DNA of 64,000 nucleotides from an uncultured Gammaproteobacteria bacterium (GTDB lineage Bacteria; Patescibacteriota; Microgenomatia; Levybacterales; UBA12049): NCBI GenBank assembly GCA_964540055.1, contig CAZILC010000006.1:8228-72227 (forward strand). Reading direction: 5' to 3'. A program made the position numbers and the translations under genes. A model generated the notes under the pieces. That model made no database searches. It was given only the letters and a program-made list of their open reading frames with translations, and was not told the origin of the DNA. Shown in pieces: positions 7,689-51,979 of this stretch (the first letter of the stretch is position 1; every line of letters begins with the position of its first letter).

Positions 7689-8174
7689 CTACAAGTGATT
7701 TTGCAAAAGTTTCATCGTAAGGTGTAATTTCGCCAATTTATCATAGGGCTCCTGCTGAAGAGAATGAGCCATTTTTTTAACATCTCGTAAAGCTTTTTCG
7801 TCTTTTTCACCTATGTAGGTAAAGTAGAGAAGCATATTTACTTTTGCTAATTTGTAGTTTCTGCTAAAAAACCCTTCTTCAGTTGTCTCATCGTACTCAT
7901 AAACAATCCACTCATTAACCGAATACTTTTTTATAATCGCAGGATCAATATTGTTCTTTTTAAACACAGCATGCATATCGGGTAATTCATCTTTGTCATT
8001 TGTAAAAAGATCAACCATGATTACTCCTTGTGGATGAATATCTTTTACAAAAGTGAGAGAATGATGAGGATTTTTATCTTGAACCCAACCTTTTGATGGT
8101 ACAAAAGAAAAACTCGTTTCGCCAAAAGTCCATTTTGTGCGCGAATTTGGTTTAAATATCCAATTTGATTTCAC
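7689..8174 (-). CDS. Hypothetical protein (161 aa), GTG start
   Basis: First gene of the unit. The GTG at 8174 lies 7 nt downstream of a TGCTATAAT box. Confidence 0.5.
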   Translation of the reverse strand: MKSNWIFKPNSRTKWTFGETSFSFVPSKGWVQDKNPHHSLTFVKDIHPQGVIMVDLFTNDKDELPDMHAVFKKNNIDPAIIKKYSVNEWIVYEYDETTEEGFFSRNYKLAKVNMLLYFTYIGEKDEKALRDVKKMAHSLQQEPYDKLAKLHLTMKLLQNHL

Positions 8175-8221
8175 AGGAGGGATTATAGCAGAGACGAGGC
8201 TAAAAATAAACTTATAGTAGT
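8172..8221 (-). promoter_or_regulatory. Leaderless promoter cassette, copy 1
   Basis: Minus strand reads ACTACTATAAGTTTATTTTT-agcctcgtc-TCTGCTATAAT-ccctcct-GTG. Confidence 0.5.
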
Positions 8222-8255
8222 TTTACATGCTGGTACATGATATAATCTCAACAAT

Positions 8256-8924
8256 ATGGACTGGGCCGGACTAGAAACCTCTCTCATCTTCATTGGCATT
8301 CTATTAATACCTCAAATAGGCATACTATTTCTTATTGGACTAGTTATTAGCATCATTTTAGATATTAAAAAAAGAAGATTTAAATTTTCTAAAATAGCAT
8401 TAATCACAATTACCTCAACAATTGGTTTAATTATTGGCATATTTTGGCTTCTGGATTATCTAGCCCGTCCTCCTTCCACTAAAGATCTCACTGAAAATTA
8501 TTTTAGACATAAAACTGAATTTAATCAGCTCGCACATAGAATTCAAATTGACCAGAAAAAAGGACTAGAAAGAGTAGATAACGATTGGACAAGGCCTGAA
8601 AATGTTACAACTATTGGCTTATCTGGAGATGACATAAAGAATTATCGAAGTGAATTTGGGAAACTCGGAATACCAAGAGGATTTTACGCCTATCAGGATA
8701 GTGTAGATTTTATTGCATATGCTTTTGGATTATCAGTCTCCGGATCGGATATGGGATATTTATATTCTGAAAAACTTCCACAAAATTATTTCAAAAAAAA
8801 CTGTGGTTATTCATTAAAGCCATTCAAAAGACTTGAAGACTATAAAGGCTGCCAAGGTTCAGGGGCATACACCATTTATCAAAAAATTGATAATAACTGG
8901 TATATTTATGACGAGTTGGAGTGA
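8256..8924 (+). CDS. Hypothetical membrane protein (222 aa)
   Basis: About three N-terminal TM segments followed by a soluble domain. TGATATAAT lies 9 nt upstream of the ATG. Confidence 0.5.
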   Translation: MDWAGLETSLIFIGILLIPQIGILFLIGLVISIILDIKKRRFKFSKIALITITSTIGLIIGIFWLLDYLARPPSTKDLTENYFRHKTEFNQLAHRIQIDQKKGLERVDNDWTRPENVTTIGLSGDDIKNYRSEFGKLGIPRGFYAYQDSVDFIAYAFGLSVSGSDMGYLYSEKLPQNYFKKNCGYSLKPFKRLEDYKGCQGSGAYTIYQKIDNNWYIYDELE

Positions 8925-9723: not shown

Positions 9724-10698
9724 TTACTTCAAAGAAGCTGCAGGAGTTGCTTTTGAAGTTCTATTGAAAGTTAAAGTCCAGATACCAATAGAATATCCTG
9801 TTGTGAATTTAACTTGTATATCGTCGACTTTATGTTTATCTAAATAATACTTTTTTGCTTGTTTTTCTAATTGAGTACCTAATTTATTTATTTGTTCGTC
9901 ATCAAAAAATGTATTTCTGTCGACCTCAGCTCGGATCACCAAAGATGTATTAGTTTCATCTCCTGACCAAGAGCGAAAAGTACTTAAATCATATCCTGAA
10001 GTTATAACACCCTTATCCGAATTCATAGCTTGTATGAACTGCTCCGTACCATTAAATATACCTAAATTAAACGGATTAATGATACTTGCTGCAAAAAACC
10101 CAATACAAATTAACCCTGTCAAAATGAAAGATATTTTTTTAGGTTTATTACTACTTACTTTTGCTTTAAAATACTTTTGTTTTTCAAGTTTAGTTAGTAA
10201 TGTAATTTGTTTTACTTTTATACTATATACTCCGCTCACTATATCGTGTAGACCTCGATGCTGCGGATGAAATAAAATATAGACTAAGTCTGCAACAACA
10301 AAGGAAGCCACGATTGCACTGATAAAACTTTGTATAAATATATTTGTAGTTAAAGGCATCATCGCAAGAATATGGGAATTATTTATTGCCAAAAGTAGGA
10401 GAAAATTTCTCAATAAAGCTTGGTTTAATGAAAGAAACTCGCCTTTTTTATTTACCAAAGCAATTCGTAGTAATTTAGCTCCCAAAGTCTGACCCTTGAA
10501 ATAAGTCTGAAGAAATGAAAAATACAGTAAAGAGATAACTAACCCCACCCACCAACCGTTGAATCCGAGTGAAAAAAAGTAATCACCGAATGGAAAACTT
10601 AATAACATTCCAATTACTCCAAGAATGCATATATCTATACCGAAGGCAAGCCATTTCCTAAATACGCCGGCTGTCACCAAAGTTATTTTTTTATTCAT
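9724..10698 (-). CDS. RDD-family membrane protein with extra C-terminal domain
   Basis: N-terminal polytopic region ending in HRGLHDIVSGVYSI, typical of RDD domains. A further TM segment and a soluble C-terminal domain follow. Confidence 0.55.
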   Translation of the reverse strand: MNKKITLVTAGVFRKWLAFGIDICILGVIGMLLSFPFGDYFFSLGFNGWWVGLVISLLYFSFLQTYFKGQTLGAKLLRIALVNKKGEFLSLNQALLRNFLLLLAINNSHILAMMPLTTNIFIQSFISAIVASFVVADLVYILFHPQHRGLHDIVSGVYSIKVKQITLLTKLEKQKYFKAKVSSNKPKKISFILTGLICIGFFAASIINPFNLGIFNGTEQFIQAMNSDKGVITSGYDLSTFRSWSGDETNTSLVIRAEVDRNTFFDDEQINKLGTQLEKQAKKYYLDKHKVDDIQVKFTTGYSIGIWTLTFNRTSKATPAASLK

Positions 10699-10745
10699 GA
10701 GGGGAATTATAGCAGAGTTGAAACAAAAAATAAACTTATAGTAGT
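10696..10745 (-). promoter_or_regulatory. Leaderless promoter cassette, copy 2
   Basis: Minus strand reads ACTACTATAAGTTTATTTTT-tgtttcaac-TCTGCTATAAT-tcccctc-ATG. Confidence 0.5.
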
Positions 10746-10826
10746 AAACCCGTCAATTTGATTATAACAAAAAAATATCTCATAGTTTGAAATTTAATTA
10801 AATCTCTGCTATACTTGCGCTTCAAA

Positions 10827-11753
10827 ATGAAAAATAATAAAAATATAGTACAAAAACTTTTGCAAGAAGCGTCCTTTTTTGAAGACCGGGGCAAAACCGC
10901 TGATGCTGCAAAAAAATATGCTGAAATATTAGAGCATTCACCAAATAACATAAATGCTTTATATGGCTTAGGTATGTGTCTTATAAACCAAAAAGAATTT
11001 GCTGACGGAGAAAAACTGTTACAAAAAGGTATGACTCTCTATCCACATACAGATTGGTTTTATGACGCTCTCTATGTCCATGAAAACGTATTTAATAACC
11101 ATAAAGAAGTCTCAAACATTATCAAGTTATGGTTAAAAAATATACCTAATAGTGGTTTAGCACATGCAAGAAATGCTGATTTCTTAATGAAAAACAAATC
11201 AGGAAACTACACAGAAATTCTGCGAGAAGCAAAAGAGGGAATTAGACTAAACCCAGTTAATTCTACTTGTATTGAAACTATGGCATTTGCCCTTTGGAAA
11301 GCTAAAGGAGAAATAAATGAAGCAAAAGAATATTTTATACACGCATTAAAATTGGATCCTCATGATGCTATCCTACATAATAATTTTGGCCATTTCTTAC
11401 TAATGACAGGAGATCCACGAAGAGCCCTTGATGAATTTAGGATGGCTTTGCGACTAAACCCAACTTTGAAAGTTAGTGTCAACAATTTAGGAAAAGCACT
11501 TTATGCAACGAATCGATTTCTTGGATGGAGATATAATATATCTGTTTTCATGACACGTCATCCTGTATTTAATAGACTCAACGGAGTAATCGCATTTTTT
11601 GTTATTAGAGGTTTAATTGAATTAGAACAAAAGGGAATTATTTCAAGTTTTGTATTGTTATCAATCTTAATACCTTACCTTATATATTTGCTTTTTTCTT
11701 ACTTCGGATACAGTACATTTATGTATTTATTTAAAAAAGGATGGATAGTTTAA
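10827..11753 (+). CDS. TPR-repeat protein with C-terminal membrane anchor
   Basis: Start at ATG 10827 (MKNNKN). Repeated A..Y..AL..P TPR-like units (e.g. AKKYAEILEHSPNNINALYGLG, AKEYFIHALKLDPHDAILHNNFG) and two C-terminal hydrophobic segments. Confidence 0.6.
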   Translation: MKNNKNIVQKLLQEASFFEDRGKTADAAKKYAEILEHSPNNINALYGLGMCLINQKEFADGEKLLQKGMTLYPHTDWFYDALYVHENVFNNHKEVSNIIKLWLKNIPNSGLAHARNADFLMKNKSGNYTEILREAKEGIRLNPVNSTCIETMAFALWKAKGEINEAKEYFIHALKLDPHDAILHNNFGHFLLMTGDPRRALDEFRMALRLNPTLKVSVNNLGKALYATNRFLGWRYNISVFMTRHPVFNRLNGVIAFFVIRGLIELEQKGIISSFVLLSILIPYLIYLLFSYFGYSTFMYLFKKGWIV

Positions 11754-12950: not shown

Positions 12951-12970
12951 CATGCTACAATATCCATATG
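12951..12970 (+). promoter_or_regulatory. Extended -10 promoter with leaderless ATG (cyclase gene)
   Basis: CATGCTACAATA, with 6 nt between the TACAAT hexamer and the ATG at 12968. Confidence 0.5.
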
Positions 12971-13582
12971 AAGCTGATCGATCTCTCAGTCCCCATTTCT
13001 GCAAATATGCCAGTCTATCCCGGTGATCCGCATGTGGTTATAAAACCCGCCGGCAAATTGGAAAAAGATGGTTTTGAAGATCATTATCTCAGTATCGGAA
13101 CGCATGCTGGAACGCATATCGATGCGCCGCGGCACATGATCTCTGATGGCAAAGGACTTGATCAATTTCCTCTTGAAAAATTTACCGGCAGGGGAGTGGT
13201 AATCGATATTTTGGACAAACACTTTGATCTAGGAAAAATAAAATCGGCAAATATACAACCCGACGATATCGTATTCTTCCGTACTAGTATGAGTGATTTT
13301 TTTGATAAACCTGAATATTTTGATAACTACCCTGCTATTCCTGAAGATGTTACAAAGTATCTTATAGAGAAAAAAATAAAAATCGTCGGCGTTGATATGT
13401 GCAGTGTCGATCATGAAGAATTTATAGCACACAAACTTTTTCTCCAAAACGAAATTCTGATCATCGAAAATCTTACCAGTCTGAAAGCCTTACAAGATAA
13501 ACAATTCACCATCTACGCCTTCCCATTAAAACTCGATCTCGACGGCTCCCCTGTCCGCGTTGTTGCTGAGATTGAGGAATAA
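12968..13582 (+). CDS. Cyclase-family protein / kynurenine formamidase-like
   Basis: Motif HAGTHIDAPRHM (HxGTHxDxPxH) and the overall size are typical of the putative cyclase / arylformamidase family. Confidence 0.75.
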   Translation: MKLIDLSVPISANMPVYPGDPHVVIKPAGKLEKDGFEDHYLSIGTHAGTHIDAPRHMISDGKGLDQFPLEKFTGRGVVIDILDKHFDLGKIKSANIQPDDIVFFRTSMSDFFDKPEYFDNYPAIPEDVTKYLIEKKIKIVGVDMCSVDHEEFIAHKLFLQNEILIIENLTSLKALQDKQFTIYAFPLKLDLDGSPVRVVAEIEE

Positions 13583-13584
13583 TC

Positions 13585-13604
13585 CATGCTACAATACAAG
13601 AGTG
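13585..13604 (+). promoter_or_regulatory. Extended -10 promoter with leaderless GTG (GT-C paralog 2)
   Basis: The same 12-mer CATGCTACAATA, with 6 nt between the hexamer and the in-frame GTG at 13602. Confidence 0.45.
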
Positions 13605-16946: not shown

Positions 16947-18086
16947 TTACCTCTTTATAAACTCTTCTGCATGGTGAACAATTTTTTCAGTATCCAACAG
17001 CTCTCGAAGTTTATTTTCATTTTTCATGATATCCGATTTTTGCTTTTCAAAACGGATAATTGCTTCTGCCAATTCTTCAGGTGATTCGGTTTTAAAAGTT
17101 AAACCAAATCCTGATTCTTTTACCAAATACCGAAGCCCAGGAATATCGCTCACAATTGCTGGTGTCCCGCAAAGCATTGCTTCTGCTTGAACTAAATTAA
17201 AACAATCTGACCGTGACGGAACAATAATTGCATCAATTCCCTGATAAAAACTTTTCAATCCCGAATCATCCAATAACCCAAGAAATGTCAGATGATCTTT
17301 GACTTGCTCAAATAATTTCTTGTTCTTTCCAAAAAAATCTTCATAAGACATTTCTTGCCCAGCAATAACAAAGTGAGCGCTTGGAATTTTTTCTAAGATT
17401 TTAGGAATTGCACGAAACAAAATATCAAAACCTTTCTCTTCAACAAACCGCCCGGCAAAACCAAAAATAAGCTTATGTTGTTTTTGTAATATTTCAATTT
17501 TGTCTAATGGTTTAGCAACATTTTTAGATTGCAATACAACAGGTAACAAAATGGGAGTAAATTTTTTCAAATGCGGCTTGAGAATTCGTGAATGCCTGGC
17601 ATAATCCGCTGTATATGTGCTGACTTTATCAGCAAGGGACAATGAAATAAAACAAGAAAGATCAAATACTTTTTCAATTACTTTGTTGATTAAACTCGGA
17701 GGAAGAATTAAATCACCCTGATGAAAAATCAATAATTTTTTACCGAAAAGTTTGGCAAATAAGGAAAAGAAAACAATATTTGCACTGGGCGAATTGATCA
17801 TTACGCAATCATTTTTTGAAACATTCTGTAAAAAATCCCATAAAATTGCTAACGAATACTTAGATCTGCTAATCGATAACAAATAATCACTTCTCAAAAC
17901 TCTCACTTTACCCAAGTTCTCCGACTTCCCCAACTTTTTATCAAAACTGACAGTCAAAACGGTTATTGTAAACCTATCCTGCAAGGCCTGAGTTAACGAA
18001 AAAACCGATTTTGCTATGCCTGTCCAGTGAGGATAAAAAAAATCGGTAACAAGCAGAACGCGCATTTGCTTTTCCTGTGTTGTCAT
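16947..18086 (-). CDS. Glycosyltransferase family 4 (GT-B, glycosyl transferases group 1)
   Basis: C-terminal domain FGFAGRFVEEKGFDIL...VPSRSDCFNLVQAEAMLCGTPAIVSD carries the E-x7-E-type GT4 signature region. Confidence 0.85.
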   Translation of the reverse strand: MTTQEKQMRVLLVTDFFYPHWTGIAKSVFSLTQALQDRFTITVLTVSFDKKLGKSENLGKVRVLRSDYLLSISRSKYSLAILWDFLQNVSKNDCVMINSPSANIVFFSLFAKLFGKKLLIFHQGDLILPPSLINKVIEKVFDLSCFISLSLADKVSTYTADYARHSRILKPHLKKFTPILLPVVLQSKNVAKPLDKIEILQKQHKLIFGFAGRFVEEKGFDILFRAIPKILEKIPSAHFVIAGQEMSYEDFFGKNKKLFEQVKDHLTFLGLLDDSGLKSFYQGIDAIIVPSRSDCFNLVQAEAMLCGTPAIVSDIPGLRYLVKESGFGLTFKTESPEELAEAIIRFEKQKSDIMKNENKLRELLDTEKIVHHAEEFIKR

Positions 18087-18123
18087 GGTTAAGTAATATT
18101 ATATAATAAAAAGACTAAATTCT

Positions 18124-22462: not shown

Positions 22463-23173
22463 TTAAATACTCTTAATTATAGAGACAAATTTCTCCACAT
22501 CCAAACTTGCCTGTCCGGGAAGTCCACCAGTTACATGTTCCAAACCGAATATTGTAGAAGCATTATCAGGATTGACACTTCCTCCGTAAATGGTAACTAC
22601 GTCTTTTCCAATCATTTTTCCTATGGCTGCAGTATTCACATCGATATCTTTAGGATCTACCGCATGAAAAGCTCCGCCGCCGCTGATGGCACTTGGCGGC
22701 TCATATACAAAGATAATTTTATCAGCATTTGAGACGAGTACATCATCTTCTTTCATGTAAAACTCCAACTGCTTCATGTCGCTAATACAAAGAACTGGAG
22801 TGATTTCTTGTGCGAGCAATTGTTTTAACTTTGCCAAGACATCGGCATCTGTCTCATGGAAGTATTTTCTCCGTTCGGAATGGCCCACTAGTGCATGAGT
22901 AACAATCCCTTTAACCTGCCTTGCAAAGATAGCACCGGTATAAGCACCTTCTTCAAATGGGGAAATATCCTGTACACCGAGTTTGAGTGGCAAATTATTC
23001 GACTCGATATATGCCTTCATTTCAGTGAGAAAAGGAAATGGCGGACAGATAATTACTTCTTTTTCTTCAGGTGTAAACGCAGGAGCTAATTCTTTAAATT
23101 TCTCAAGCCAAGCAATCGCATCGGAGAGTGTTTTGTATGATTTCCAATTGCCAACAATAAAGAGCTTTTTCAT
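22463..23173 (-). CDS. tpiA: Triosephosphate isomerase
   Basis: GNWKSYK near the N-terminus, VGHSERR, and the YEPPSAISGG region. Confidence 0.9.
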   Translation of the reverse strand: MKKLFIVGNWKSYKTLSDAIAWLEKFKELAPAFTPEEKEVIICPPFPFLTEMKAYIESNNLPLKLGVQDISPFEEGAYTGAIFARQVKGIVTHALVGHSERRKYFHETDADVLAKLKQLLAQEITPVLCISDMKQLEFYMKEDDVLVSNADKIIFVYEPPSAISGGGAFHAVDPKDIDVNTAAIGKMIGKDVVTIYGGSVNPDNASTIFGLEHVTGGLPGQASLDVEKFVSIIKSI

Positions 23174-23196
23174 ATGCTATTATACCATTATAACAA

Positions 23197-25579: not shown

Positions 25580-26472
25580 TCTTCACTGTACCTGCTATAC
25601 AACCACACACCGATAACGACCAACCAGGCGCCGAAGAATTCCACATAGGAAATGCTTTCACCATATAATAAATAGCCCAAAATTAATGAAAATAAATTAC
25701 TTACAAGCAATAATTGCGTAGCGACGACCGCATTTAACTTCTGAAATCCGAAATTCTGGAGTTTGGTAACGAGCACAATGATAAATCCACTCACAAGTAG
25801 TCCATATAAAGCAATAGAATTTAAAAAGCCGGAAACAGGTAATGACTCACCAATAAAAAACGCGGTAATTACAGAGCAGATAAAAGCAAAAAACAAGACA
25901 ACAACAGCAATTTCAGTATTATTGAGTTTATTTGAAAGAAATTTTCGACCTAGTACATAAATACCTATCCCTGCCGCGTAAAGTAAAACAAAAAAGTCAC
26001 CACTATTAAACTGGGATAATGATGGAATTAAAGATTTTGTCGCAAGGACAAAAACGCCGTAAATAGTGATTAATAAAAACAGAAGCAGATTTAGTTTAAA
26101 AGCTTTCCTGAGAACCAATATCGTAAACAGAAAGACAAAAAGCGGCGTTGTTGAGCTCATTACAGCCACATTAAGCAATTTTGTATGAAGAACACCAAGT
26201 GTCACAAAATCCACTGCAAGTCCATAACCTAAGGTCCCCATTAAAACAAGTAAAATCCAATCTTTCCGGCTTATTTTTCCAAACTTTTTAAAATCAATCT
26301 TCTTATAAAAAAGCCCTATGGTCAAAAGCAAACCCAACGCGATCCGTAAATATACCTGGGTGAAAGGCCCAAAACCTGCATTTATTATCCGGACAGAAAT
26401 ATTGAGGAGAGTAAAACACAAAGCAACAATACACATTGCTACAATTGCTTTTTGCTTTGAAGTTAAGCTCAT
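25576..26472 (-). CDS. EamA/DMT-family transporter
   Basis: 298 aa with about 10 TM segments in two homologous halves, typical of drug/metabolite transporters. Confidence 0.75.
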   Translation of the reverse strand: MSLTSKQKAIVAMCIVALCFTLLNISVRIINAGFGPFTQVYLRIALGLLLTIGLFYKKIDFKKFGKISRKDWILLVLMGTLGYGLAVDFVTLGVLHTKLLNVAVMSSTTPLFVFLFTILVLRKAFKLNLLLFLLITIYGVFVLATKSLIPSLSQFNSGDFFVLLYAAGIGIYVLGRKFLSNKLNNTEIAVVVLFFAFICSVITAFFIGESLPVSGFLNSIALYGLLVSGFIIVLVTKLQNFGFQKLNAVVATQLLLVSNLFSLILGYLLYGESISYVEFFGAWLVVIGVWLYSRYSED

Positions 26473-26487
26473 TTCTCAAGTATATCA
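26470..26487 (-). promoter_or_regulatory. Extended -10 promoter with leaderless ATG (EamA transporter)
   Basis: Minus strand reads TGATATACT-tgagaa-ATG. Confidence 0.5.
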
Positions 26488-26543: not shown

Positions 26544-26561
26544 TGCTATTCTTGAGCCATG
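26544..26561 (+). promoter_or_regulatory. Extended -10 promoter with leaderless ATG (26559 gene)
   Basis: TGCTATTCT-tgagcc-ATG. Confidence 0.45.
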
Positions 26562-27975: not shown

Positions 27976-28877
27976 CCTCTTTTTGCGAGCAATTGTTCTT
28001 CCGGCAAGGTGCGGACATCAATACTCTGCATTGCTTCGCCCAAGCCTTTTGAAACTTTGGCGATGATTTCAGGATTTTGATATTGGGTCGTCGCAACGAC
28101 AATTGCCTTTGCTCGCTTGAGTGGATCACTTGATTTAAAAATACCTGATCCGACGAAAACCCCATCTGAACCGAGCTGCATCATGAGAGCCGCATCAGCT
28201 GGCGTTGCGATGCCACCTGCAGCAAAATTAACAACGGGAAGTCTTCCTAATTTTGCAACCTCTTCAACTAGGTCAAACGGAACTCTATATTCTAATGCTT
28301 TTGCCTCTCGTTGTTTCTTACTCAAATTCTTAAGAGCTACTATTTCACCAGTTACTGTCTTTTGATGCCTAACTGCTTCAACAATATTTCCTGTTCCAGC
28401 CTCACCTTTCGTTCTGATCATCGAAGCGCCCTCATTGATTCTTCGAAGTGCTTCCCCTAAATTGCGACATCCGCAGACAAACGGGACGTTAAAATTATGC
28501 TTATCTACATGCGCTTCTTCATCAGCAGGAGTGAGAACTTCCGACTCATCAATATAATCAACACCCAATGCTTCAAGAACTTGCGCCTCGACAAAATGAC
28601 CAATTCTGCATTTTGCCATAACAGGAATTGAAACCGCATCCATAATTTTTTGGATCATTTCAGGATCAGACATTCTGGCAACTCCTCCTGCCACTCTTAT
28701 ATCTGAAGGCACTCGCTCCAATGCCATCACTGCGCATGCTCCAGCATCTTCAGCGATCTTTGCATGCTCAACATTAACAACATCCATAATGACGCCGCCT
28801 TTAAGCATTTGTGCGAGACCTTTTTTGACTTCAAAAGTCGCAGTACTCTTCACTGTTGTGCTTTTTCCGTTTTTCAC
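27969..28877 (-). CDS. pdxS: Pyridoxal 5'-phosphate synthase lyase subunit (GTG start)
   Basis: [33 protein letters not shown] and [10 protein letters not shown] motifs. Overlaps pdxT by 7 nt. Confidence 0.95.
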
Positions 28878-28922
28878 AGTTTAGTTTATACCTTACTTTG
28901 GGTATAAAAACAACCCCGGGTT

Positions 28923-28941
28923 TGTTAAGATAGAAGATATG
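28923..28941 (+). promoter_or_regulatory. Extended -10 promoter with leaderless ATG (femAB-like)
   Basis: TGTTAAGAT-agaagat-ATG. Confidence 0.45.
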
Positions 28942-29983: not shown

Positions 29984-30934
29984 TTAGGCAGCTAATCGGG
30001 CAAGTGGCGTAGAACCTAACTCGGCAAACGCTTGTACAACATCTTTTGCCTCTTCAGGATGACCATATCTTACTGTCCCTTCTATTTCTTTTCTTTTATT
30101 TCTTTTCCCTACTAAGACAGAATCCTTTACCAAAATATGGGCATTGTCAAAAGGAACATCAACAGGTGTTCCAATAATCGAATGTTCAACTATGCCGCCA
30201 AGAACACTTGGAAAAACATCTACTGTCCCGTAAATTACACTATTAATCACGTCAACTCCTGCGGTTTCCTGTGATTGAATCGCGGGGATAATCCAACGAT
30301 CAACAACTCTCGCTGTCTCTGCCATTTTTCCAAACCCTTCATATTCATCATTAGCTCTTGCTCTACCAAATGACGAATACGACATATCCTTATCAAGAAG
30401 CTTATCAATCTCTCGTAAACTTCTCCTCACCATTCCACTATTTGTATTTCTTATACCGTCCGCCATCGCAATAAGTGATTCAAAATGAGACGCAGTAAAT
30501 TCAGGAGGATTAGCGCCTCTTACAGCTCTTCCCAGTACAAATGCTCCAACAAGTAACTCGTCTGAAACCTGAGGATTCCTCGCTGATCTGAGAATATTAG
30601 AAGATGCAAAAATTACTCCACCTGATAAACTAGCATCAACTGACTCTGCAAGAACAGATCTTCCTTTTATGGACTTCCCACTCGATGAATAACCTTGTAA
30701 AGGACCTGCCAGAAGAGTTTCTGAATCAAGTTCTCCCCAAAGTGGAAGTAAGTCTCTTCTCATAACAGTGCCTTTTCTCCCTTGCCTCCGCCTTGCCATT
30801 GTAGCAGAGCTGAATTCGTGTTCTTTCCAATGCGGTTGATCAATGACGATCAGCCTCTTCAATGCAGGTTCAATAACTCCTGTATGAACCATCACATCTA
30901 AAGGTACTCTTGCTCTTGCGTCTACTTTTGCCAT
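29984..30934 (-). CDS. Hypothetical protein (316 aa), no recognised domain
   Basis: Long uninterrupted ORF, soluble and Arg/Ser/Gly-rich. Own promoter-like TAGTATAAT lies 11 nt upstream of the ATG. Confidence 0.5.
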   Translation of the reverse strand: MAKVDARARVPLDVMVHTGVIEPALKRLIVIDQPHWKEHEFSSATMARRRQGRKGTVMRRDLLPLWGELDSETLLAGPLQGYSSSGKSIKGRSVLAESVDASLSGGVIFASSNILRSARNPQVSDELLVGAFVLGRAVRGANPPEFTASHFESLIAMADGIRNTNSGMVRRSLREIDKLLDKDMSYSSFGRARANDEYEGFGKMAETARVVDRWIIPAIQSQETAGVDVINSVIYGTVDVFPSVLGGIVEHSIIGTPVDVPFDNAHILVKDSVLVGKRNKRKEIEGTVRYGHPEEAKDVVQAFAELGSTPLARLAA

Positions 30935-30990
30935 AATAAGAGGAAATTATACTATAAATAAAAACAAATACAACCTATAAGAATAGCTAG

Positions 30991-31572
30991 TCAATATTTA
31001 CTTCGTGGCTCATGCTTCTGATGGGGGATTTCGTAGCAATACAACTCCGCTTTATCATCCTTCGCAATAAGTGGCAGATCCATTTGGTAAACAAAGGTTA
31101 CAATTCTTGTTCCCGGTTTGAGTTCTTTGAGAAATCTCGGACGGAGCTTCACAAGTGTCTTGGGAATCAGATACATAAAAATAACTGACGCTTTGGAAAT
31201 GTCCTGATTCCAGAAATTATCTCTTCTGATTTCAACCTGTTTCGAAACTCCCGACAATTTTACATTGATTTTCGAAATCCACGCACGAAACGGATCTATT
31301 TCAATCCCCACTCCCGTTGCCCCGTATTCCTTGGCTGCAATGATGAGTGCAGTCCCTTCACCAGAACCCAAATCATAGATCACATCACCTTTTTTTACTT
31401 TCGCCAGATTGCATTCAATCCGCGCACGTTCAGGAGTAGTCCGCCACCAGGGAGACCAGGGACTATCTGGTGGCCAGAGCATCGAGAGAAGAAAAAGCAA
31501 AATAACAAGGACAACAAAAGAAAGAACTATGACAGCCATACTTTCCCTATTATAGCGCTTTTTTCGACCCAA
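30991..31572 (-). CDS. Membrane-anchored class I SAM-dependent methyltransferase
   Basis: N-terminal TM segment (VIVLSFVVLVILLFLLSMLW) and SAM motif I VIYDLGSGEGTALIIAA. Overlaps the sodX-like gene by 46 nt. Confidence 0.65.
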   Translation of the reverse strand: MGRKKRYNRESMAVIVLSFVVLVILLFLLSMLWPPDSPWSPWWRTTPERARIECNLAKVKKGDVIYDLGSGEGTALIIAAKEYGATGVGIEIDPFRAWISKINVKLSGVSKQVEIRRDNFWNQDISKASVIFMYLIPKTLVKLRPRFLKELKPGTRIVTFVYQMDLPLIAKDDKAELYCYEIPHQKHEPRSKY

Positions 31573-31847: not shown

Positions 31848-32260
31848 TATTTTGCAGCTTTAGTTTCTTTAAATATCTTATCTATTTCAGAAATAAGATC
31901 CAAAAGCTTTTGCCCGACTGATGGATCTACTGATTTTTTGGTATCTCCTGCTGCTTTGGTTGCACGCCAGAAGATATCGTGAAGATTGGGATATTTTTCA
32001 ACGTGTTCGGGTTTGAAATAGTCAGTCCACAAGACCCAAAGATGATGCTTTACGAGTTCTGCACGTTGCTCTTTGATAAAAACTGCCCGCCACTTTTGCT
32101 CGTCTTCATGTAGTCCCGCATATTTTTCCATAATCTTCATCACACTTTCAGCCTCAATTCTCGCTTGTGCGGGATCATAGACACCGCAAGGAAGATCACA
32201 ATGAGCGAAAGCTGTTTGTGTTGGAAGCATTTTGGACAAAAGTGTAAGAGCGGAGTTCAT
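31847..32260 (-). CDS. sodN: Nickel superoxide dismutase precursor
   Basis: The leader MNSALTLLSKMLPTQTAFA is followed by the Ni-hook HCDLPCGVYDP. Start set at ATG 32260, 7 nt after a TATTAT box, not at the track start 32416. Confidence 0.9.
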   Translation of the reverse strand: MNSALTLLSKMLPTQTAFAHCDLPCGVYDPAQARIEAESVMKIMEKYAGLHEDEQKWRAVFIKEQRAELVKHHLWVLWTDYFKPEHVEKYPNLHDIFWRATKAAGDTKKSVDPSVGQKLLDLISEIDKIFKETKAAK

Positions 32261-32323
32261 AACAAAAATAATAGCGCTTCTCTGAACAGATTGCAAGACA
32301 TAATTCAGTAAGAGCACAAAGTG

Positions 32324-32341
32324 TGTTACTATAAAAACATG
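32324..32341 (+). promoter_or_regulatory. Extended -10 promoter with leaderless ATG (membrane protein 32339)
   Basis: TGTTACTAT-aaaaac-ATG. Confidence 0.45.
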
Positions 32342-33583: not shown

Positions 33584-34197
33584 ACTTTTGCAGCCAAGCT
33601 ATTGGCCAAAGAATCTGCTCTCTCGTTATTGGGATCACCTGAATGCCCAAGGACTTTTTTATAATCCACCAGTAAATTATTCTCTTGTATCACCTTTTCG
33701 ATATCTTCAAAAATTTCACGATTTGCGATCACTTTACTTGCAGGCTTTTGAAGATTAAAAAGTGAAATCTGGCTATCCGTATACAACAATATGTTTCTAA
33801 AATTCTGCTCAGCCGCCCATTTAAGAGCATAATAAATAGCCAAACCTTCAGCTCTGTTATTTGTTTGTTTACCTTCCACGCGGCCTGCAGCTTCTGTTTT
33901 ACCAGAGACAAAGGCCCAAGCTGCTCTAGCCTTAGGTGTTCCATTATATACGCAAGCCCCATCTGTCCAAATCTCAGCATCATATCCCGTCAAACTTTTT
34001 GTTTGTGATCCTGAAAAGAGGGGAGAGGTTTGGGGATTCGTTACTTTAAACTTATCATCATGATACAACTTATTGCAATTGGAACAATAATAATATGCTG
34101 AATAATAAAATGGTTTTTGTAATTGCTGAGGAGTACGTTTAGTCTGTTTTTCAACCAACCTCTTACCGCAATTTTTACAAGTTCTCTGTTCTTCCAT
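33580..34197 (-). CDS. rnhA: Ribonuclease HI with N-terminal zinc-ribbon
   Basis: IWTDGAC...NNRAEGLAIYYAL...YTDSQ...GHSGDPNNERADSLA carries the RNase H DEDD residues. The N-terminus has CKNCGK...CSNCNK (two CxxC pairs). Confidence 0.85.
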   Translation of the reverse strand: MEEQRTCKNCGKRLVEKQTKRTPQQLQKPFYYSAYYYCSNCNKLYHDDKFKVTNPQTSPLFSGSQTKSLTGYDAEIWTDGACVYNGTPKARAAWAFVSGKTEAAGRVEGKQTNNRAEGLAIYYALKWAAEQNFRNILLYTDSQISLFNLQKPASKVIANREIFEDIEKVIQENNLLVDYKKVLGHSGDPNNERADSLANSLAAKV

Positions 34198-34360
34198 ACT
34201 TTTTATTATTATATCAGGAATCTACAAATAGAGGCTAAATAGTTTAATAAAAACACTATATCTATATATTAACTATATCAGGTACACTATCGGTCTTATG
34301 GAACTCTATGTGTCCAGCAATATCTAATGGTACAATGAAGTAAAGTACACAAACTAAAGC

Positions 34361-34792: not shown

Positions 34793-36928
34793 TTCTATTT
34801 TTCCATCTTTCACCTTAGGCTCGATGGTATCTCCAGGTTTGATTGTTCCTTCAATAATCCTCGTTGCGATTTCATCAACCAGCTTTTCCTCAATTGCCCG
34901 ACGTAGAGGGCGTGCACCAAAGACTGGATCGTAACCGACTTCTGCGAAATACATTGCAAGATCATCGCTTATTTTAAGGGATACACCATTTTCAGCCATC
35001 CGTTCTTTAACCTCATCAAGCTGCTGCTCGGCAATATGGAGAAGATCTTTGGGGGAGAGGGGATTGTAAATGACTACTGAATCTAAACGATTGAGAAATT
35101 CAGGTTTGAAATGTGCATGCAGCAACTCCCAAACACTTTTCTCAGCAGATTTTTTATCTTTGGCCTCACGAATCACATCTCCGCCAAGATTGCTCGTCAT
35201 GATAATAATAGTATTACGAAAATCAACCGTCATACCCTTGCTATCCGTGAGTCGTCCGTCATCAAATATTTGAAGAAAAATATTGAAAACCTGCGGATGA
35301 GCTTTCTCAATTTCATCAAAAAGAATTACCGAGTATGGACGACGCTTTACAGCCTCAGTAAGCTGTCCGCCTTCATCATAGCCGACATAGCCTGGAGGAG
35401 CACCAATCAATCGCGCAACGGAGTGAGACTCCATATACTCGCTCATATCAATCCTTGTCATGGCATGCTCATCAGTAAAAAGAATGCGGGCGAGTGCCTT
35501 GGCAGTTTCAGTTTTACCAACACCAGTCGAACCAAGAAAAAGAAATGACCCAATTGGCTTGTCTTTACGGCCCAATCCTGATCGAGAACGCCTGATGGCA
35601 CGAGAGACAACTGATGTAGCTTCATCCTGTCCAACGACATATTTTTTGAGTTCATCTTCTAGGTTTAGTAGTCGCTCAGATTCCGTTGAAAGGATTCTTG
35701 TTGCAGGGATACCTGTCCAGCGGGAGACAACCCGCGCAATATCATCTTCATCAACTTCTTCGCGCAGAACACGTTCCTCAGATGGAATTTTTTTCCATTG
35801 TGCATCAGCTTCCTGTAATTTCTTCTCAAGCTCAGGAATTTTGCCGTATTTAATCTCCGCAGCTTTCTGGAGATCAACAATTCGTTCAGCTTTATCCAAT
35901 TCAATACGATAAGCATCAATTTTGGCACGGATATCCTGAATTTTTTGAATCAGATCTTTTTGTGCTTTCCAACGATCTTCTATAACCGATGCTTCCTTTT
36001 TGAACTTTTCGAGTTGTTCTTCCTGTTGTAATTTGCGGGACTTAGCAATCTCTGTTTTATCACGCCGAAGTGCTGCTAATTCAATCTCTAATTGCATTAT
36101 GTGCCGCTTAAGTTCATCAAGTTCTGCCGGCATACTTTCAGTTTCAATTTTTATCGCAGCTGCTGCTTCATCAATTAGATCAATTGCTTTATCAGGCAAG
36201 AATCTTTGGGGGATATACTGAGCGGACAATTTAGCTGCAGCAATGAGTGCATTATCTGTAATTCGTATTCCATGATGTAATTCATATTTTTCCTTAATGC
36301 CGCGCAAGATTGAAATGCTATCTTCAATTGTTGGCTCATCAATAAGAACTTGTTGAAAACGACGGGCGAGTGCGGGATCTTTCTCAATATATTTACGATA
36401 TTCGGTAACAGTTGTTGCGCCGATCATACGGAGTGTGCCGCGTGCAAGGGCCGGTTTGAGGATATTGGCGGCATCATTTGAGCCTTCTGCAGCTCCCCCA
36501 CCTACTAAAGTGTGAAGCTCATCGATAAACATAATATATTTACTATCGGCTTCTTCTACAGCTTTAATCACGCCCTTAAGACGTTCTTCAAATTCACCCC
36601 GGAATTTTGCACCAGCTAGTAATAATGCAAAATCCAATACGACAACTTCTTTATCTTTAAGTGGTGTTGGAACCGCATTTTCAACTATTTTTTGGGCCAA
36701 ACCTTCAACAATTGCTGTCTTACCAACGCCAGGATCGCCAATGAGGACGGGATTATTTTTCGTCCGACGCGATAATATCTCCATTACCCGACGAATTTCC
36801 ACTTCGCGACCAATGACAGGATCGATCTTACCGGAGCGTGCAGAATCGGTTAAATTAATGGTAAATTTCTTTAATGCAACGAGTGGCTCAACCGGTTTGA
36901 GAAAGTCTGGGACTTGATTACTATCCAT
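34787..36928 (-). CDS. clpB: ClpB-type AAA+ disaggregase lacking the N-terminal Clp_N domain
   Basis: Two AAA modules ([15 protein letters not shown]; [15 protein letters not shown]), a long coiled-coil M-domain between them, and the signature [25 protein letters not shown]. At 713 aa it starts only about 30 aa before NBD1. Confidence 0.9.
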
Positions 36929-36972
36929 ACTACCCTATTTTAGAATTAGCAAACTAAGTTGTCAAGTGCTAA
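36926..36972 (-). promoter_or_regulatory. clpB promoter (TTGACA-N17-TAAAAT-N8-ATG) overlapped by a CIRCE-like inverted repeat
   Basis: Minus strand reads TTAGCACTTGACAACTTAGTTTGCTAATTCTAAAATAGGGTAGTATG. The inverted repeat TTAGCACTT-N9-GTTTGCTAA compares with the CIRCE consensus TTAGCACTC-N9-GAGTGCTAA. Confidence 0.5.
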
Positions 36973-41466: not shown

Positions 41467-41518
41467 CCACCATTTTCACTTTACTTATCCCCTATTTTAT
41501 TTTATGCTGGAATAAGCC

Positions 41519-42313
41519 ATGAAGATTGACATTTTTTCTGCTGCAATGATCAAAACATTCCTTTATGCCGGGATTACCCTTCTTATTGCAGTATTATTGG
41601 ATTATATTCTCAGATCGCTCATCAGAGTTCCTAAACATTTTAACAATAAAAGAACCCAAACCGTAGCCGCGGTGACGCGTAATATAATAACAATCATTAT
41701 ATATGTGTTCGCAGGATATATTATCATTACTCTTTTTGGCATCAATTTGACCCCACTTCTTGCCAGTGCAAGTATTATTGGTATCGTTCTTGGAATCGGC
41801 GCTCGTGAGATCATAGAGGATTTCGCTAACGGATTTTTTCTCTTATCTTTGGATTCGATAGCAATTGGAGATTATCTACAAATTGGTACCAACTTTATTC
41901 AAGGTGATAATACGCTAGGCACTGTTGAAAATATTGGTGCTCGGACGCTGACTATCAAAGCTGATGACGGTTCATTTCATATAATCCCAAACGGTCAAAT
42001 CAAAAAGATCATAAACTATTCCAGACATCGATTTAATATTTTTATTGATCTTCCCGTGAAGGCAAATCAGGATATTGAGAAAGTGACAAAAGCAGCAGAA
42101 AATGCCATGAAACAGCTGCATAGTGATCAAGAATTTACCGAGGCAATACTCACCGGCTCACAAGTAAATGGCATTGAAAGTTTCGCAACTGGTGAAGTTA
42201 TGATATTTAGAACTACAATAACAACTTATCCATCACGACGTATAGAAATAGCAAAACAATATCGCTTACTCGTTAAAAAAGAATTTGAGAAACACAAAAT
42301 TCAATTTGCATAA
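41519..42313 (+). CDS. Small-conductance mechanosensitive channel (MscS family)
   Basis: Three TM segments, then GIVLGIGAREIIEDFANGFFLLSLDSIAIGDYLQIG, the MscS pore and beta-domain junction. Confidence 0.8.
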   Translation: MKIDIFSAAMIKTFLYAGITLLIAVLLDYILRSLIRVPKHFNNKRTQTVAAVTRNIITIIIYVFAGYIIITLFGINLTPLLASASIIGIVLGIGAREIIEDFANGFFLLSLDSIAIGDYLQIGTNFIQGDNTLGTVENIGARTLTIKADDGSFHIIPNGQIKKIINYSRHRFNIFIDLPVKANQDIEKVTKAAENAMKQLHSDQEFTEAILTGSQVNGIESFATGEVMIFRTTITTYPSRRIEIAKQYRLLVKKEFEKHKIQFA

Positions 42314-44835: not shown

Positions 44836-44874
44836 GCTGTACTATATGCTATAATTAGTCTTATAGGAGAAACT

Positions 44875-45516
44875 GTGGACAAAAATAATACCACAAACAA
44901 ACCAAAACGGGACAAAATCGAAGTCTTTTCTTTTGCTGCTTATAAAAAACATCACGATTCAATAAAGCCACAGACACTAAGAGAAAAAATCACTCACAAA
45001 ATAAAACATCACAAAGTCACCAAATCCGAATATGAAAAAATATATGAAGAATTAAAAGAAATGGATCCTGATGAACCTATTATCTGGATGGGAAAACCAT
45101 CTCAAGTTACGAATTTATTTGGATATGTAGTATGTTTTCTCTTTTGCTGGTTAGTATTTCCTCTTATTCTTGCATATTATTTATATTTACGCACGAAGTT
45201 TACAGTGTATGTTCTTACCGCTCAACGACTGCGAGTTTACTCGGGAGTATTTATTAAACGAATTGATGATGTTGAGTTATATCGGGTAAAAGACACAATT
45301 TTTCTACAACCCTTTTTTCTTGCATGGTTTGGCCTTTCAAATATCCAACTCATCACTTCAGATTCTACATGGGGAGATGCTATGATAATGGGCATTACAA
45401 ACGGAAGAATGTTGAGGGAAAAAATTCGAAGTATTGTTGAAGTTGCCCGAGAGAGAAAAGGAGTTCGCGAAGTTGATTATTATACGCGGGGTGAACCAAT
45501 GCCTGCCGGACTATAA
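44875..45516 (+). CDS. Bacterial PH-domain (bPH_2/YdbS-like) membrane protein, GTG start
   Basis: Two-TM hairpin, then TAQRLRVYSGVFIKRIDDVELYRVKDTI...IQLITSD, typical of the DUF304/bPH_2 family. AGGAGA SD lies 4 nt before the GTG. Confidence 0.6.
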   Translation: MDKNNTTNKPKRDKIEVFSFAAYKKHHDSIKPQTLREKITHKIKHHKVTKSEYEKIYEELKEMDPDEPIIWMGKPSQVTNLFGYVVCFLFCWLVFPLILAYYLYLRTKFTVYVLTAQRLRVYSGVFIKRIDDVELYRVKDTIFLQPFFLAWFGLSNIQLITSDSTWGDAMIMGITNGRMLREKIRSIVEVARERKGVREVDYYTRGEPMPAGL

Positions 45517-45560
45517 TAAACTTGACATTACTTCAAATTTTTGCTCTACTAAAATTAGAC

Positions 45561-46022
45561 ATGAATAAAAAAACTGCTCCCAAAAAATCTACTGTAAGAA
45601 AATCCGTCAAACGCACAATCCCCCGCTCCCATACTTCACGAAGCAATCAAACCATTCTTATTAGAAGAATTGTAATTTTTAGCGCATGTCTCGTTATGGT
45701 TATCGGCATTGCAGCAACGTTCAATCGAGGTTCTGCAAGCCAGGCAGTCGCAGGTGCAGCTATCACACGGGGATTATTTAATCAAACAACCATTTGGATT
45801 CCATCAGTACCTAACGCGACAGGATATAATATCTATTACAAGCAACAGGGTGAACAGAAATTCACCAATGCAGTACGCAATATTCCAGTGAACGTTCACC
45901 AATACACAGTTTCTTACTTAAAAAGAGGTGTTACCTATCAATATACAGAAGCCGCGATTGTCGGCGGAAAAGAAGTCAATTTCACTCCGATCACAACCAT
46001 AACAAATCTCCAATCAATGTAG
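45561..46022 (+). CDS. Hypothetical secreted/anchored protein with Fn3-like domain
   Basis: Start at ATG 45561 (MNKKTAPKK). Basic N-terminus, a TM segment (IVIFSACLVMVIGIAA), then a beta-rich segment (PNATGYNIYYKQQGE...YTVSYLKRGVTYQY). Confidence 0.45.
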   Translation: MNKKTAPKKSTVRKSVKRTIPRSHTSRSNQTILIRRIVIFSACLVMVIGIAATFNRGSASQAVAGAAITRGLFNQTTIWIPSVPNATGYNIYYKQQGEQKFTNAVRNIPVNVHQYTVSYLKRGVTYQYTEAAIVGGKEVNFTPITTITNLQSM

Positions 46023-46086
46023 TTTTCTAATTTTTTAAACTAAACTCTTACAGATTTCCTTGACAAGTTTTATATAATATAACTAT

Positions 46087-46641
46087 ATGAGTTCTGATAC
46101 TCTACAAACTGCAACGTTTGCCAACGGCTGCTTCTGGTGCACAGAAGCTATCTTTAAACGCATAAAGGGAGTAGAATCGGTTATGTCAGGCTACTCTGGC
46201 GGTACAATTGAAAACCCCACTTATGAACAAGTTTCAAGTGAATCTACTGGACACGCAGAGTCAGTTCAGATTACTTTTGATCCAAAAATAATTTCTTATG
46301 AAACTATAGTAGATGTTTTTTTTGCAACACATGATCCAACTACACTGAATCGACAAGGCAATGACGTAGGAACACAGTATCGTTCTGCCATTTTTTACCA
46401 CAATGAAGAACAAAAGAAATTAGCTGAAAAAGCAATCGAAAAGCTTGAAAAATCAGGAAAATATCATGATCCTATTGTTACAAAAATTGAAAAGTTCACA
46501 AAATTTTACCCTGCAGAAGAGTACCACAAAGAATATTATGATTCTCATCGCTCCGCTCCTTATTGTATGGTCATCATTGATCCAAAAATAAGAAAATTAA
46601 TGGAAAACTTTAAAGAGAATGTAAAAGAAGAATATAAATAA
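46087..46641 (+). CDS. msrA: Peptide-methionine (S)-S-oxide reductase
   Basis: GCFWC active-site motif and the [12 protein letters not shown] and YHKEYY regions. Confidence 0.95.
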
Positions 46642-47522: not shown

Positions 47523-47537
47523 TTTTGTATTCTAGCA
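47520..47537 (-). promoter_or_regulatory. Extended -10 promoter with leaderless ATG (MutY-like)
   Basis: Minus strand reads TGCTAGAAT-acaaaa-ATG. Confidence 0.5.
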
Positions 47538-47589: not shown

Positions 47590-47607
47590 TGATATACTTG
47601 ATAAATG
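47590..47607 (+). promoter_or_regulatory. Extended -10 promoter with leaderless ATG (EEP nuclease)
   Basis: TGATATACT-tgataa-ATG. Confidence 0.5.
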
Positions 47608-51392: not shown

Positions 51393-51979
51393 ATTTCTAC
51401 TCCTTTCGCATTAATAATAAACTGTTTTATTTTCTGCAAATCTTCCCTGCCGTTTGTTTCAATTCCGGAAGCCACATCCACTGCAAATGGTTTCACTTTC
51501 TCAATTGCTATTGCTATATTATCCGGAGTCAAACCACCTGCAAAAAAAATAGCATTTTTTTCTGCCAGATCTTTTGCATATGTATAATCAACCATTTTCC
51601 CTTTTCCTTGAATTTTTCTATCTACGAGTAAAAATTGCGCATATATAGGTGTTATTTTTTGCATTCTGTTAATACTTTTTATTACCGGATAGTGTAACTG
51701 TTTGATGTATGTATCATCTTCATTCCCATGTAATTGAATATAATCCAAATTAAGTTTTTGTGCTATACTTTTTACTTCCCGTATGTCAGCATTTCTAAAT
51801 ACTCCCACAATTTTTATTTTACCTCTGATTTGATTAATTATCTTTAAGCTTTTTTCCGGGTCAATATATCGACCTGCTGATGGTACAAAATTAAAACCGA
51901 TAAATTCCGCACCTTCATTACTAGCAACAAGTGCTGATTCCAAACTTCGAATACCACAAATTTTTACTTTCACTTTCAT
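51389..51979 (-). CDS. trpF: Phosphoribosylanthranilate isomerase
   Basis: VKICGI...GAEFIGFNFVPS...QLHG...FAGGLTPDN pattern, and its position between trpC and trpB. Confidence 0.85.
   Translation of the reverse strand: MKVKVKICGIRSLESALVASNEGAEFIGFNFVPSAGRYIDPEKSLKIINQIRGKIKIVGVFRNADIREVKSIAQKLNLDYIQLHGNEDDTYIKQLHYPVIKSINRMQKITPIYAQFLLVDRKIQGKGKMVDYTYAKDLAEKNAIFFAGGLTPDNIAIAIEKVKPFAVDVASGIETNGREDLQKIKQFIINAKGVEI

Follow-up and report, generated by a model that had tools for sequence, protein, structure and literature searches.

The first genes of transcription units in a 64-kb stretch of contig CAZILC010000006.1 (the window) are very probably for the most part leaderless or near-leaderless, and appear to be transcribed from sigma-70-type promoters with an extended -10 box. 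Judged by the letters of the DNA, about 28-30 of its 69 genes, corresponding to ~60-75% of the first genes, would be of the leaderless type. The window has a base composition of 38% GC, is densely coding (~69 genes) and finds its nearest relatives among metagenome-assembled genomes (MAGs) of Patescibacteria (the candidate phyla radiation, CPR); the named homologues of one gene belong to Levybacteria and Roizmanbacteria (Microgenomates), and this placement is based on record titles and protein names. Scans of the window for tRNA, rRNA and Rfam families gave no match, and the 3′ end of the 16S rRNA hence lies outside it. The 64 kb were analysed together with ~150 kb of sequence from relatives.

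Position of the -10 box relative to start codons

Start codons were assigned blind to the motif, as the first ATG or GTG in each of 69 non-overlapping open reading frames (ORFs). A TAnnnT hexamer lies 5-9 nt before the start in 28 of the 69 genes, compared with 9.0% of 3329 other ATG or GTG codons (p=2e-12), and exceeds a local control, in which every gene's own 40 upstream bases were permuted, with z=5.0. The extended form TGnTAnnnT occupies the same position in 13 of 69 genes and at 0.7% of the other codons (p=4e-15); its mean in the local shuffles is 0.71 (z=14.7). At a distance of 6-7 nt, it is found at 10 of the 69 gene starts, at 5 of the 3329 other codons and at 1 of 451 spurious ORF starts. 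The latter were selected by the same start rule and allow for the in-frame stop codon that precedes an ORF-first start and might inflate the count of TA. They display TAnnnT in 8.9% and the extended motif in 0.4% of cases, as opposed to 41% and 19% in real genes.

Eleven genes have the box at 6 nt and seven have it at 7 nt; these are the maxima of the offset profile, which elsewhere counts ~2-3 genes per offset and is at background level outside 5-11 nt. As determined by a scan that starts from the motif, 12 of 191 TGnTAnnnT sites are located 6-7 nt before an ATG or GTG opening an ORF of at least 80 aa, while the other offsets account for ~0.5 each. Sites were scored by their matches to TATAAT, with one additional point for an upstream TG, and at least 5 points were required of a TAnnnT hexamer. 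Among the 28 strong sites, the spacing is 5-8 nt in 21 and has its mode at 6-7 nt (15/28); their start codons are ATG in 26 cases, GTG in two and TTG in none. When TTG was admitted as a candidate start, no ORF-first TTG with a box at 5-9 nt was observed. The unchanged pipeline yielded 2/30 first genes in E. coli K-12, the negative control (not significant), and 6/23 in Deinococcus radiodurans MP1, the positive control (p=2.5e-7, spacings 6-11 nt).

The window contains 2628 TAnnnT in total, and bare consensus matching is uninformative in DNA so AT-rich. A terminator scan of the window was not above shuffles (16 vs 13.8, 13 vs 14.5). The enrichment of -10 boxes near starts, which a preliminary description of this DNA had claimed from visual inspection, nevertheless survives the shuffles, the other codons and the spurious ORFs within the window; AT-richness is very unlikely to be its cause.

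Promoter features and ribosome-binding sites

A gene was regarded as the first of a transcription unit if it has a divergent neighbour or is preceded by a gap of at least 25 nt. The motif is present at 29 of 39 such genes and at 5 of 30 internal genes (Fisher p=2e-6), and strong matches at 23/39 and 2/30, respectively. Alignment of the 28 strong sites on the hexamer results in the consensus TGnTATAAT. The TG extension is complete in 16 of them (T in 22, G in 20), and a weak TTG (18, 16 and 11 of 28) is visible at a spacer of exactly 17 nt upstream of the hexamer. A complete TTGACA, noted earlier for three promoters at a distance of 16-17 nt, was indeed located at 36965(-), 59248(+) and 63971(-) with spacers of 17, 17 and 16 nt. 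Because the motif is largely restricted to first genes and is accompanied by TG and -35 features, we interpret it as a promoter and not as a ribosome-binding site (RBS).

Not one of the 28 strong sites carries a Shine-Dalgarno (SD) 4-mer, against a background of 10.9%. The remaining 41 genes are enriched in SD elements (5-mer in 8/41 versus 3.2% background, p=4e-5); a 4-mer is found in 11 of them, a minority, and SD motifs are rare across the window as a whole. Seventeen internal genes overlap the stop codon of the gene upstream. The -10 box and the SD element are mutually exclusive upstream of starts, which is the criterion of PMC4633059. In five divergent pairs, both genes are of the leaderless type and their start codons are 78-86 bp apart; this is just room for two back-to-back promoters and leaves no space for further ones. 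The sequence tests all fit a coexistence of two initiation modes, as had been suspected: leaderless or near-leaderless starts at first genes, and SD pairing or translational coupling at internal ones.

The cyclase and PMT_2 genes

The interval 12951-13604 comprises a cyclase-family gene with an identical extended -10 box at either end (Table 1). Counted from ATG 12968, residues 4-149 match positions 1-142 of the Pfam profile Cyclase. The second box belongs to a PMT_2 glycosyltransferase gene, and this promoter starts right behind the cyclase stop codon. Homologues of the PMT_2 protein are mostly 558-560 aa long, and their N-termini (VLKRILDQSK/MKKIVDQSK) coincide with GTG 13602; upstream of the orthologue in relative L009 we find TGTTACAAT, 6 nt and ATG. 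By the same N-termini, TTG 13560, the start of the longest ORF, is too early. The deposited protein P0001 (100% identical, 549 aa) begins at TTG 13635, 11 codons downstream of the homologue-supported start.

The 12-mer CATGCTACAATA that the two neighbouring genes were said to share is present at 12951 and 13585. Duplication of a promoter was considered as its origin but finds no support: the likeness ends at 12 bases, and at least two occurrences were obtained in 8 of 100 shuffles.

In syntenic relatives (L009-L012; gene lists of P0003 and P0034), the PMT_2 genes corresponding to 5391-7082 and 13602-15284 are adjacent. The ~6.5-kb block 7089-13582 that separates them in the window, made up of small ORFs, RraB/DUF695, RDD, TPR and AAA ATPase genes and the cyclase gene, appears to be an insertion specific to the window's genome.

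Independent evidence for the start codons

For most genes, the ORF offers no possible start upstream of the one given in the preliminary description, and the Pfam domains set in within a few residues of it. The respective matches are TIM for tpiA (start 23173; residues 5-235 on profile 2-244), SOR_SNZ for pdxS (start 28877; residues 15-220 on profile 2-207), PMSR for msrA (start 46087; residues 8-160 on profile 1-152), tRNA-synt_1b for trpS (start 49361; residues 4-280 on profile 7-290) and RsmF_N for the gene starting at 56149 (residues 7-97 on profile 1-85). In the Ni superoxide dismutase (Ni-SOD) precursor, the mature N-terminus HCDLPCG is located at residue 20 from ATG 32260, leaving a propeptide of 19 aa, and a short propeptide is known for Ni-SOD. 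With the alternative starts GTG 32317 and TTG 32416, the propeptide would measure 38 aa and 71 aa, respectively. The orthologue of 32339 in relative L004 has TATAAT, 6 nt and an ATG that is the first ATG or GTG of its ORF.

Several further candidates were rejected. The long-ORF starts 32321 (for 32339), GTG 49385 (trpS) and TTG 56119 (RsmB/F) are too early, and TTG 45522 falls inside a conserved TTGACA -35 box, the real start being ATG 45561. Homologue N-termini, the Ni-SOD propeptide, the L004 orthologue and Pfam coordinates all bear out the proposal that the pattern selects true starts over 13560, 32416, 32321 and 56119. The agreement of the proposed starts with homologue N-termini, Pfam coordinates and propeptide length is indirect support for translation from these codons.

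Conservation in relatives

A ClpB-like gene is preceded in three genomes (window, L004 and L001) by TTGACA, 17 nt, TAAAAT or TACAAT, 8 nt and ATG, while the spacer sequence is variable. Upstream of an MscS-like gene, L001 and L004 share with the window a TATGCT placed 10 nt from the start and, across a 17-nt spacer, a -35 box, and the TTGACA upstream of the 45561 gene is conserved in relatives as well. L004 retains a -10 box 6-8 nt upstream of msrA, trpS, 47605, 32339, 34197 and 47522, although the hexamers differ. The elements read TGTATAAT, 6 nt, ATG at msrA; TACAAT, 7 nt, ATG at trpS; TGcTATACT, 6 nt, ATG at the orthologue of 47605; and TATTAT, 6 nt, ATG at that of 34197 (RNase H). For tpiA, a -10-like hexamer is found 5 nt upstream in four genomes (window, L009, L011 and L012), and the FemAB orthologue (28939) of L012 has TGaCATAAT, 7 nt and ATG. 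The L004 orthologue of 44875, a leadered gene in the window, displays TGTTATAAT and an AAAGGAA leader. Despite sequence divergence, the spacing is kept in the putative orthologous promoters of the ClpB-like and MscS-like genes, msrA, trpS, 47605, 32339, tpiA and 13602. A TTGACA near 46087 was discarded as the -35 box of msrA, its spacer to TATAAT being just 7 nt and the element missing in L004.

Pooled over first genes, the box was detected at 16/38 in close relatives (p=8e-9) and at 16/47 in syntenic loci (p=9e-6). In L005-L007, which are 39-49% identical and in part labelled archaeon or Gammaproteobacteria, 3/22 first genes carry it, which is no enrichment in a small sample. L008 was left out of the comparisons, as its contig is full of frameshifts.

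Proposed mode of initiation and alternatives

We propose that first genes are served by sigma-70-type, mostly extended -10 promoters of the consensus TGnTATAAT, with a weak or absent -35 box. RNA polymerase would begin at, or a few bases from, the A or G of the start codon, and the resulting mRNAs would have no or a very short 5′ untranslated region, devoid of an SD element. On the first gene, ribosomes would bind the 5′-terminal AUG or GUG directly (leaderless pathway), whereas downstream operon genes would be translated by virtue of stop/start overlap (translational coupling) or ordinary SD pairing. The usual distance from a -10 box to the transcription start is 6-8 nt. Since the observed distance of 6-7 nt between box and start codon matches this value, +1 is predicted to fall on or near the start codon. 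We infer the transcription start sites from this distance and the way in which ribosomes are recruited by analogy with mycobacteria, Deinococcus and E. coli, where it has been studied.

Four observations weigh against this model. A generic -35/-10 scan is not above shuffles (63 vs 72 expected, 68 vs 66), and the case therefore rests on position and not on motif abundance. Eight or nine sites have a spacing of 9-11 nt, implying leaders of 2-5 nt. Some first genes are clearly leadered, namely 44875 (SD), 18124 and, with longer leaders, 1042 and gdh (37445), and the more distant syntenic loci L009-L012 show a broader peak. The wide spacings, seen at 8256, 10827, 18086, 30934, 31539, 34197, 41519 and 63934, would be accounted for if the promoters were real but transcription began a few bases upstream, or from other promoters, and short SD-less leaders were translated independently of SD pairing. 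Gene 18124, which lacks an SD and has its conserved -10 box at 16 nt from the start, fits such a scheme, as translation of an SD-less leader seems to occur in this organism. However, the spacing mode puts +1 on the start codon, the divergent gaps are too tight for extra promoters, and leaders of at most 5 nt are by convention leaderless; we regard this explanation as unlikely.

Considerably less probable still is that the A/T-rich motif acts on the mRNA, as a non-SD RBS or enhancer of the Bacteroidetes type ('group B'). The motif does occupy an RBS-like position, 5-11 nt upstream, in a window where SD elements are rare, but an RBS would be expected at internal genes too, from which it is largely missing. 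Furthermore, the motif comes with sigma-70 features at the DNA level, namely TG at -15/-14 and, across a spacer of 16-17 nt, TTG or TTGACA, and the same consensus lies 19 nt before the SD-led gene 44875 (leader 12-13 nt, with SD), where only a promoter role is possible. We attach hardly any weight to an artefact, be it of AT-rich intergenic DNA, of the ORF-opening stop codon or of starts picked to fit the motif. Such a suspicion is invited by the low GC content, by the sheer number of TAnnnT in the window and by the choice of starts by eye in the preliminary description. Against it stand the motif-blind reassignment of starts, the shuffles for both TAnnnT and TGnTAnnnT, the low frequencies at spurious ORF-first starts and the null result for E. 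coli under the same analysis. Initiation on leaderless or near-leaderless transcripts thus remains the model that we favour.

Comparison with known systems

The criteria that define leaderless genes in PMC3160421, PMC6028130 and PMC4633059 equal those applied here. According to the same studies, leaderless transcripts are translated from a 5′-terminal AUG or GUG without SD pairing, and downstream cistrons by coupling or SD. The 'group C' genomes of GeneMarkS-2 (PMC6028130) and what Zheng et al. 2011 (PMC3160421) call TA-led genes are best known from Actinobacteria and Deinococcus-Thermus. The window resembles them in the Pribnow TAnnnT located 6-8 nt before first-gene starts and largely absent from internal operon genes, and in the mutual exclusion of -10 box and SD. 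The other genes of such genomes use an RBS or SD; in the window, SD elements are enriched among the other genes and present in a minority of them. Its putative leaderless share (~41% of genes, 60-75% of first genes) equals or exceeds that of Deinococcus-Thermus, where 35.9-46.1% of genes are leaderless (PMC3160421). In contrast, code-11 genomes of group C are nearly all high-GC (MetaGeneMark-2, 10.1101/2022.07.25.500264), whereas the host here is a low-GC (38%), standard-code member of the CPR/Patescibacteria. Moreover, its box is a full TGnTATAAT extended -10 element instead of the low-information TAnnnT of high-GC phyla, and SD elements on internal genes are sparse, stop/start overlap being dominant.

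As in mycobacteria (Cortes 2013; Shell 2015, PMC4633059), ATG or GTG stands at the inferred 5′ end, without SD and next to a -10 box; the mycobacterial case was established by start-site mapping, ribosome profiling and reporters, whereas the present one is predicted from sequence. Mycoplasma of group C (10.1101/2022.07.25.500264) likewise combine a small genome of low GC content with a predicted leaderless share of 30-60% among transcripts, but they represent another phylum and use code 4 (TGA=Trp), while TGA is a stop codon in the window, as judged from ATGA overlaps. Archaeal leaderless genes (GeneMarkS-2 group D) share the combination of leaderless first genes with internal genes that rely on SD or coupling. 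Their promoter, however, is a TATA box ~26 nt upstream, as opposed to a bacterial -10 box ~6-7 nt upstream. Non-SD initiation of the Bacteroidetes type (group B) is alike in the A/T-rich motif near the start and in low SD use; there, the motif lies within the mRNA of first and internal genes, whereas the motif of the window is largely confined to first genes and has promoter features.

The architecture is thus a known one in an unusual low-GC CPR lineage and not a new mechanism, and both the detection framework and the tools already exist. A literature search on leaderless or SD initiation in CPR, Patescibacteria, Saccharibacteria and Microgenomates, whose coverage was incomplete, returned no report. 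Our findings would add an uncultured lineage with small, low-GC genomes and the standard code to those in which leaderless initiation is abundant, and they bear on the debate whether leaderless initiation is ancestral and on mRNA recruitment by ribosomes that lack several proteins. In practical terms, gene callers tuned to SD elements misplace starts in such genomes, as illustrated by P0001, while longest-ORF starts at 13560, 32416, 32321, 45522, 49385 and 56119 are too early; for CPR MAGs, a -10 rule would make start calls and promoter maps more accurate, and likewise the prediction of N-terminal signal peptides. We are evenly divided on the broader proposition that operons throughout the Microgenomates-like branch of the CPR by default begin with a leaderless gene, with internal genes mostly coupled and SD in a minor role. 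If true, this branch, with its reduced ribosome and low GC, would join Actinobacteria and Deinococcus-Thermus as a third major group of bacteria whose transcriptome is predominantly leaderless, and starts would be systematically mis-called in thousands of CPR MAGs.

Catalogue of sites

The predicted elements are compiled in Table 1. Nineteen of the 21 leaderless starts listed in the preliminary description have a TAnnnT of at least 5 points at 5-9 nt; of the other two, 28877 is weak and 41519 had to be amended. The box at 41519 had been read as TGcTGGAAT; what three genomes share is the hexamer TATGCT, which lies 10 nt before the start and is separated by 17 nt from a -35-like box. Where the start had been left as 57156/57159, ATG 57159 is canonical (7 nt) and ATG 57156 is not. 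Of the SD elements, those at 59793 and 44865 had been placed correctly, while AAGAGGA is positioned at 38695 rather than 38690. Nine sites of the same kind, marked in the table as unlisted, were added.

Table 1. Predicted promoter, start and SD elements in the window, with the spacing given from the end of the -10 hexamer (or the SD) to the start codon.
Element and spacing	Start codon	Coordinates	Strand	Gene and remarks
TGcTACAAT, 6 nt	ATG 12968	12953..12970	+	promoter/start of cyclase-family gene 12968-13582
TGcTACAAT, 6 nt	GTG 13602	13587..13604	+	promoter/start of PMT_2 glycosyltransferase gene 13602-15284
TGcTATAAT, 7 nt	GTG 8174	8172..8190	-	
TGaTATAAT, 9 nt	ATG 8256	8238..8258	+	unlisted
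TGcTATAAT, 7 nt	ATG 10698	10696..10714	-	RDD-family gene
TTGAAA, 17 nt, TGcTATACT, 11 nt	ATG 10827	10807..10829	+	near-leaderless, ~4-5 nt leader; unlisted
TATAAT, 11 nt	ATG 18086	18084..18103	-	GT4 glycosyltransferase; near-leaderless; unlisted
TGgTATAAT, 5 nt	ATG 23173	23171..23187	-	tpiA
TGaTATACT, 6 nt	ATG 26472	26470..26487	-	EamA transporter
TGcTATTCT, 6 nt	ATG 26559	26544..26561	+	
TAAACT, 5 nt, or TATAAA, 8 nt	GTG 28877	28875..28891	-	pdxS; weak, without TG
TGtTAAGAT, 7 nt	ATG 28939	28923..28941	+	FemAB family
TATAAT, 11 nt	ATG 30934	30932..30951	-	near-leaderless; unlisted
TATAAT, 9 nt	ATG 31539	31537..31554	-	methyltransferase; promoter within 3′ end of upstream gene; unlisted
TATTAT, 7 nt	ATG 32260	32258..32273	-	Ni superoxide dismutase precursor
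TGtTACTAT, 6 nt	ATG 32339	32324..32341	+	
TGaTATAAT, 10 nt	ATG 34197	34195..34216	-	RNase H; near-leaderless; unlisted
TTGACA, 17 nt, TAAAAT, 8 nt	ATG 36928	36926..36965	-	ClpB-like AAA+ gene
TTTACT, 17 nt, TATGCT, 10 nt	ATG 41519	41480..41521	+	MscS-like; near-leaderless, leader of ~3-4 nt likely
TGcTATAAT, 19 nt; SD AGGAG(A) at 44865	GTG 44875	44847..44877	+	leadered contrast case
TTGACA (45522-45527), TGcTCTACT/TAAAAT	ATG 45561	45522..45563	+	exact -10 hexamer ambiguous; unlisted
TATAAT, 8 nt	ATG 46087	46073..46089	+	msrA
TGcTAGAAT, 6 nt	ATG 47522	47520..47537	-	HhH-GPD glycosylase
TGaTATACT, 6 nt	ATG 47605	47590..47607	+	Exo_endo_phos family
TACAAT, 8 nt	ATG 49361	49359..49375	-	trpS; internal promoter at trp operon end; unlisted
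SD AAGGAG, 7 nt	ATG 51392	51392..51406	-	trpB; contrast case; trpC (52755) and trpG (54362) alike
TATAAT, 7 nt	ATG 56063	56061..56076	-	TrpR-like repressor
TATAAT, 6 nt	ATG 56149	56137..56151	+	RsmB/F methyltransferase
TAGAAT, 7 nt	ATG 57159	57146..57161	+	ATG 57156 would have 4 nt only
TTGACA, 17 nt, TATACT, 8 nt	ATG 59285	59248..59287	+	
full SD AAGGAGGTGA	ATG 59808	59793..59810	+	contrast case, internal SD-led gene
TGcTAATAT, 7 nt	ATG 63234	63232..63250	-	unlisted
TTGACA, 16 nt, TGgTATAAT, 9 nt	ATG 63934	63932..63971	-	

Leadered genes and additional observations

Upstream of gene 18124 (18094-18123, +), TATAAT or TACAAT is located 16 nt before the ATG in four genomes (window, L010, L011 and L012), and no SD is present. 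This arrangement suggests a third class of initiation, with a short leader and no SD. A PilO-containing (pilus-like) operon starting at ATG 1042 (+; ~1000-1041) is preceded by AAATTAAGCCGYRTTGT ~20-30 nt upstream, again in four genomes (window, L009, L010 and L011). Owing to its conservation at this distance, the motif points to a conserved leader element and not to a leaderless start.

An identical 20-mer, ACTACTATAAGTTTATTTTT, followed by CTCTGCTATAAT, occurs at 8202-8221 (-) and 10726-10745 (-), with 0.01 matches expected by chance. The two copies cover the -35 areas of two divergent promoter regions (8174-/8256+ and 10698-/10827+), and the 20-mer is a candidate for a shared operator or a duplicated promoter.

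In a window as compact as this one, the spacer 36929-37444 (516 nt) is unusually long. A part of ~160 nt (37123-37281) is 80% identical in L004 and also aligns in L001; it includes a conserved ~75-nt hairpin (about 37131-37207) and a conserved CTAAGAAATACGCAAA stretch. This region has no Rfam match and unremarkable fold z-scores, and its three sequences are too few for covariation. It may encode a small RNA or a regulatory leader.

A strong hairpin of 9 pairs with a T-run (55723-55745, -) directly follows the presumably leaderless TrpR-like gene (55779-56063) and ends 14 nt before the trpE ATG 55708. It may serve as a terminator or attenuator for read-through into the complete trpEGDCFBA operon. 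For a CPR genome, it is in itself notable that the trp operon is complete and that proBAC, gdh and pdxST are present as well.

Between tpiA and a UvrD-like helicase gene, there is a LAGLIDADG-like ORF (23197-23703, +; weak Pfam match) whose last 11 nt overlap the start of the helicase gene. This ORF is missing in L009, L011 and L012, where the helicase gene has its own presumably leaderless start (xATTAT, 5 nt, ATG); the inserted ORF is now preceded by a similar CATTAT, 5 nt, ATG. Finally, the Ni-SOD precursor gene overlaps by 1 nt with a gene for an S26-type peptidase immediately downstream (31527-32260, -); in this CPR genome, the two make up the classic maturation pair sodN-sodX.

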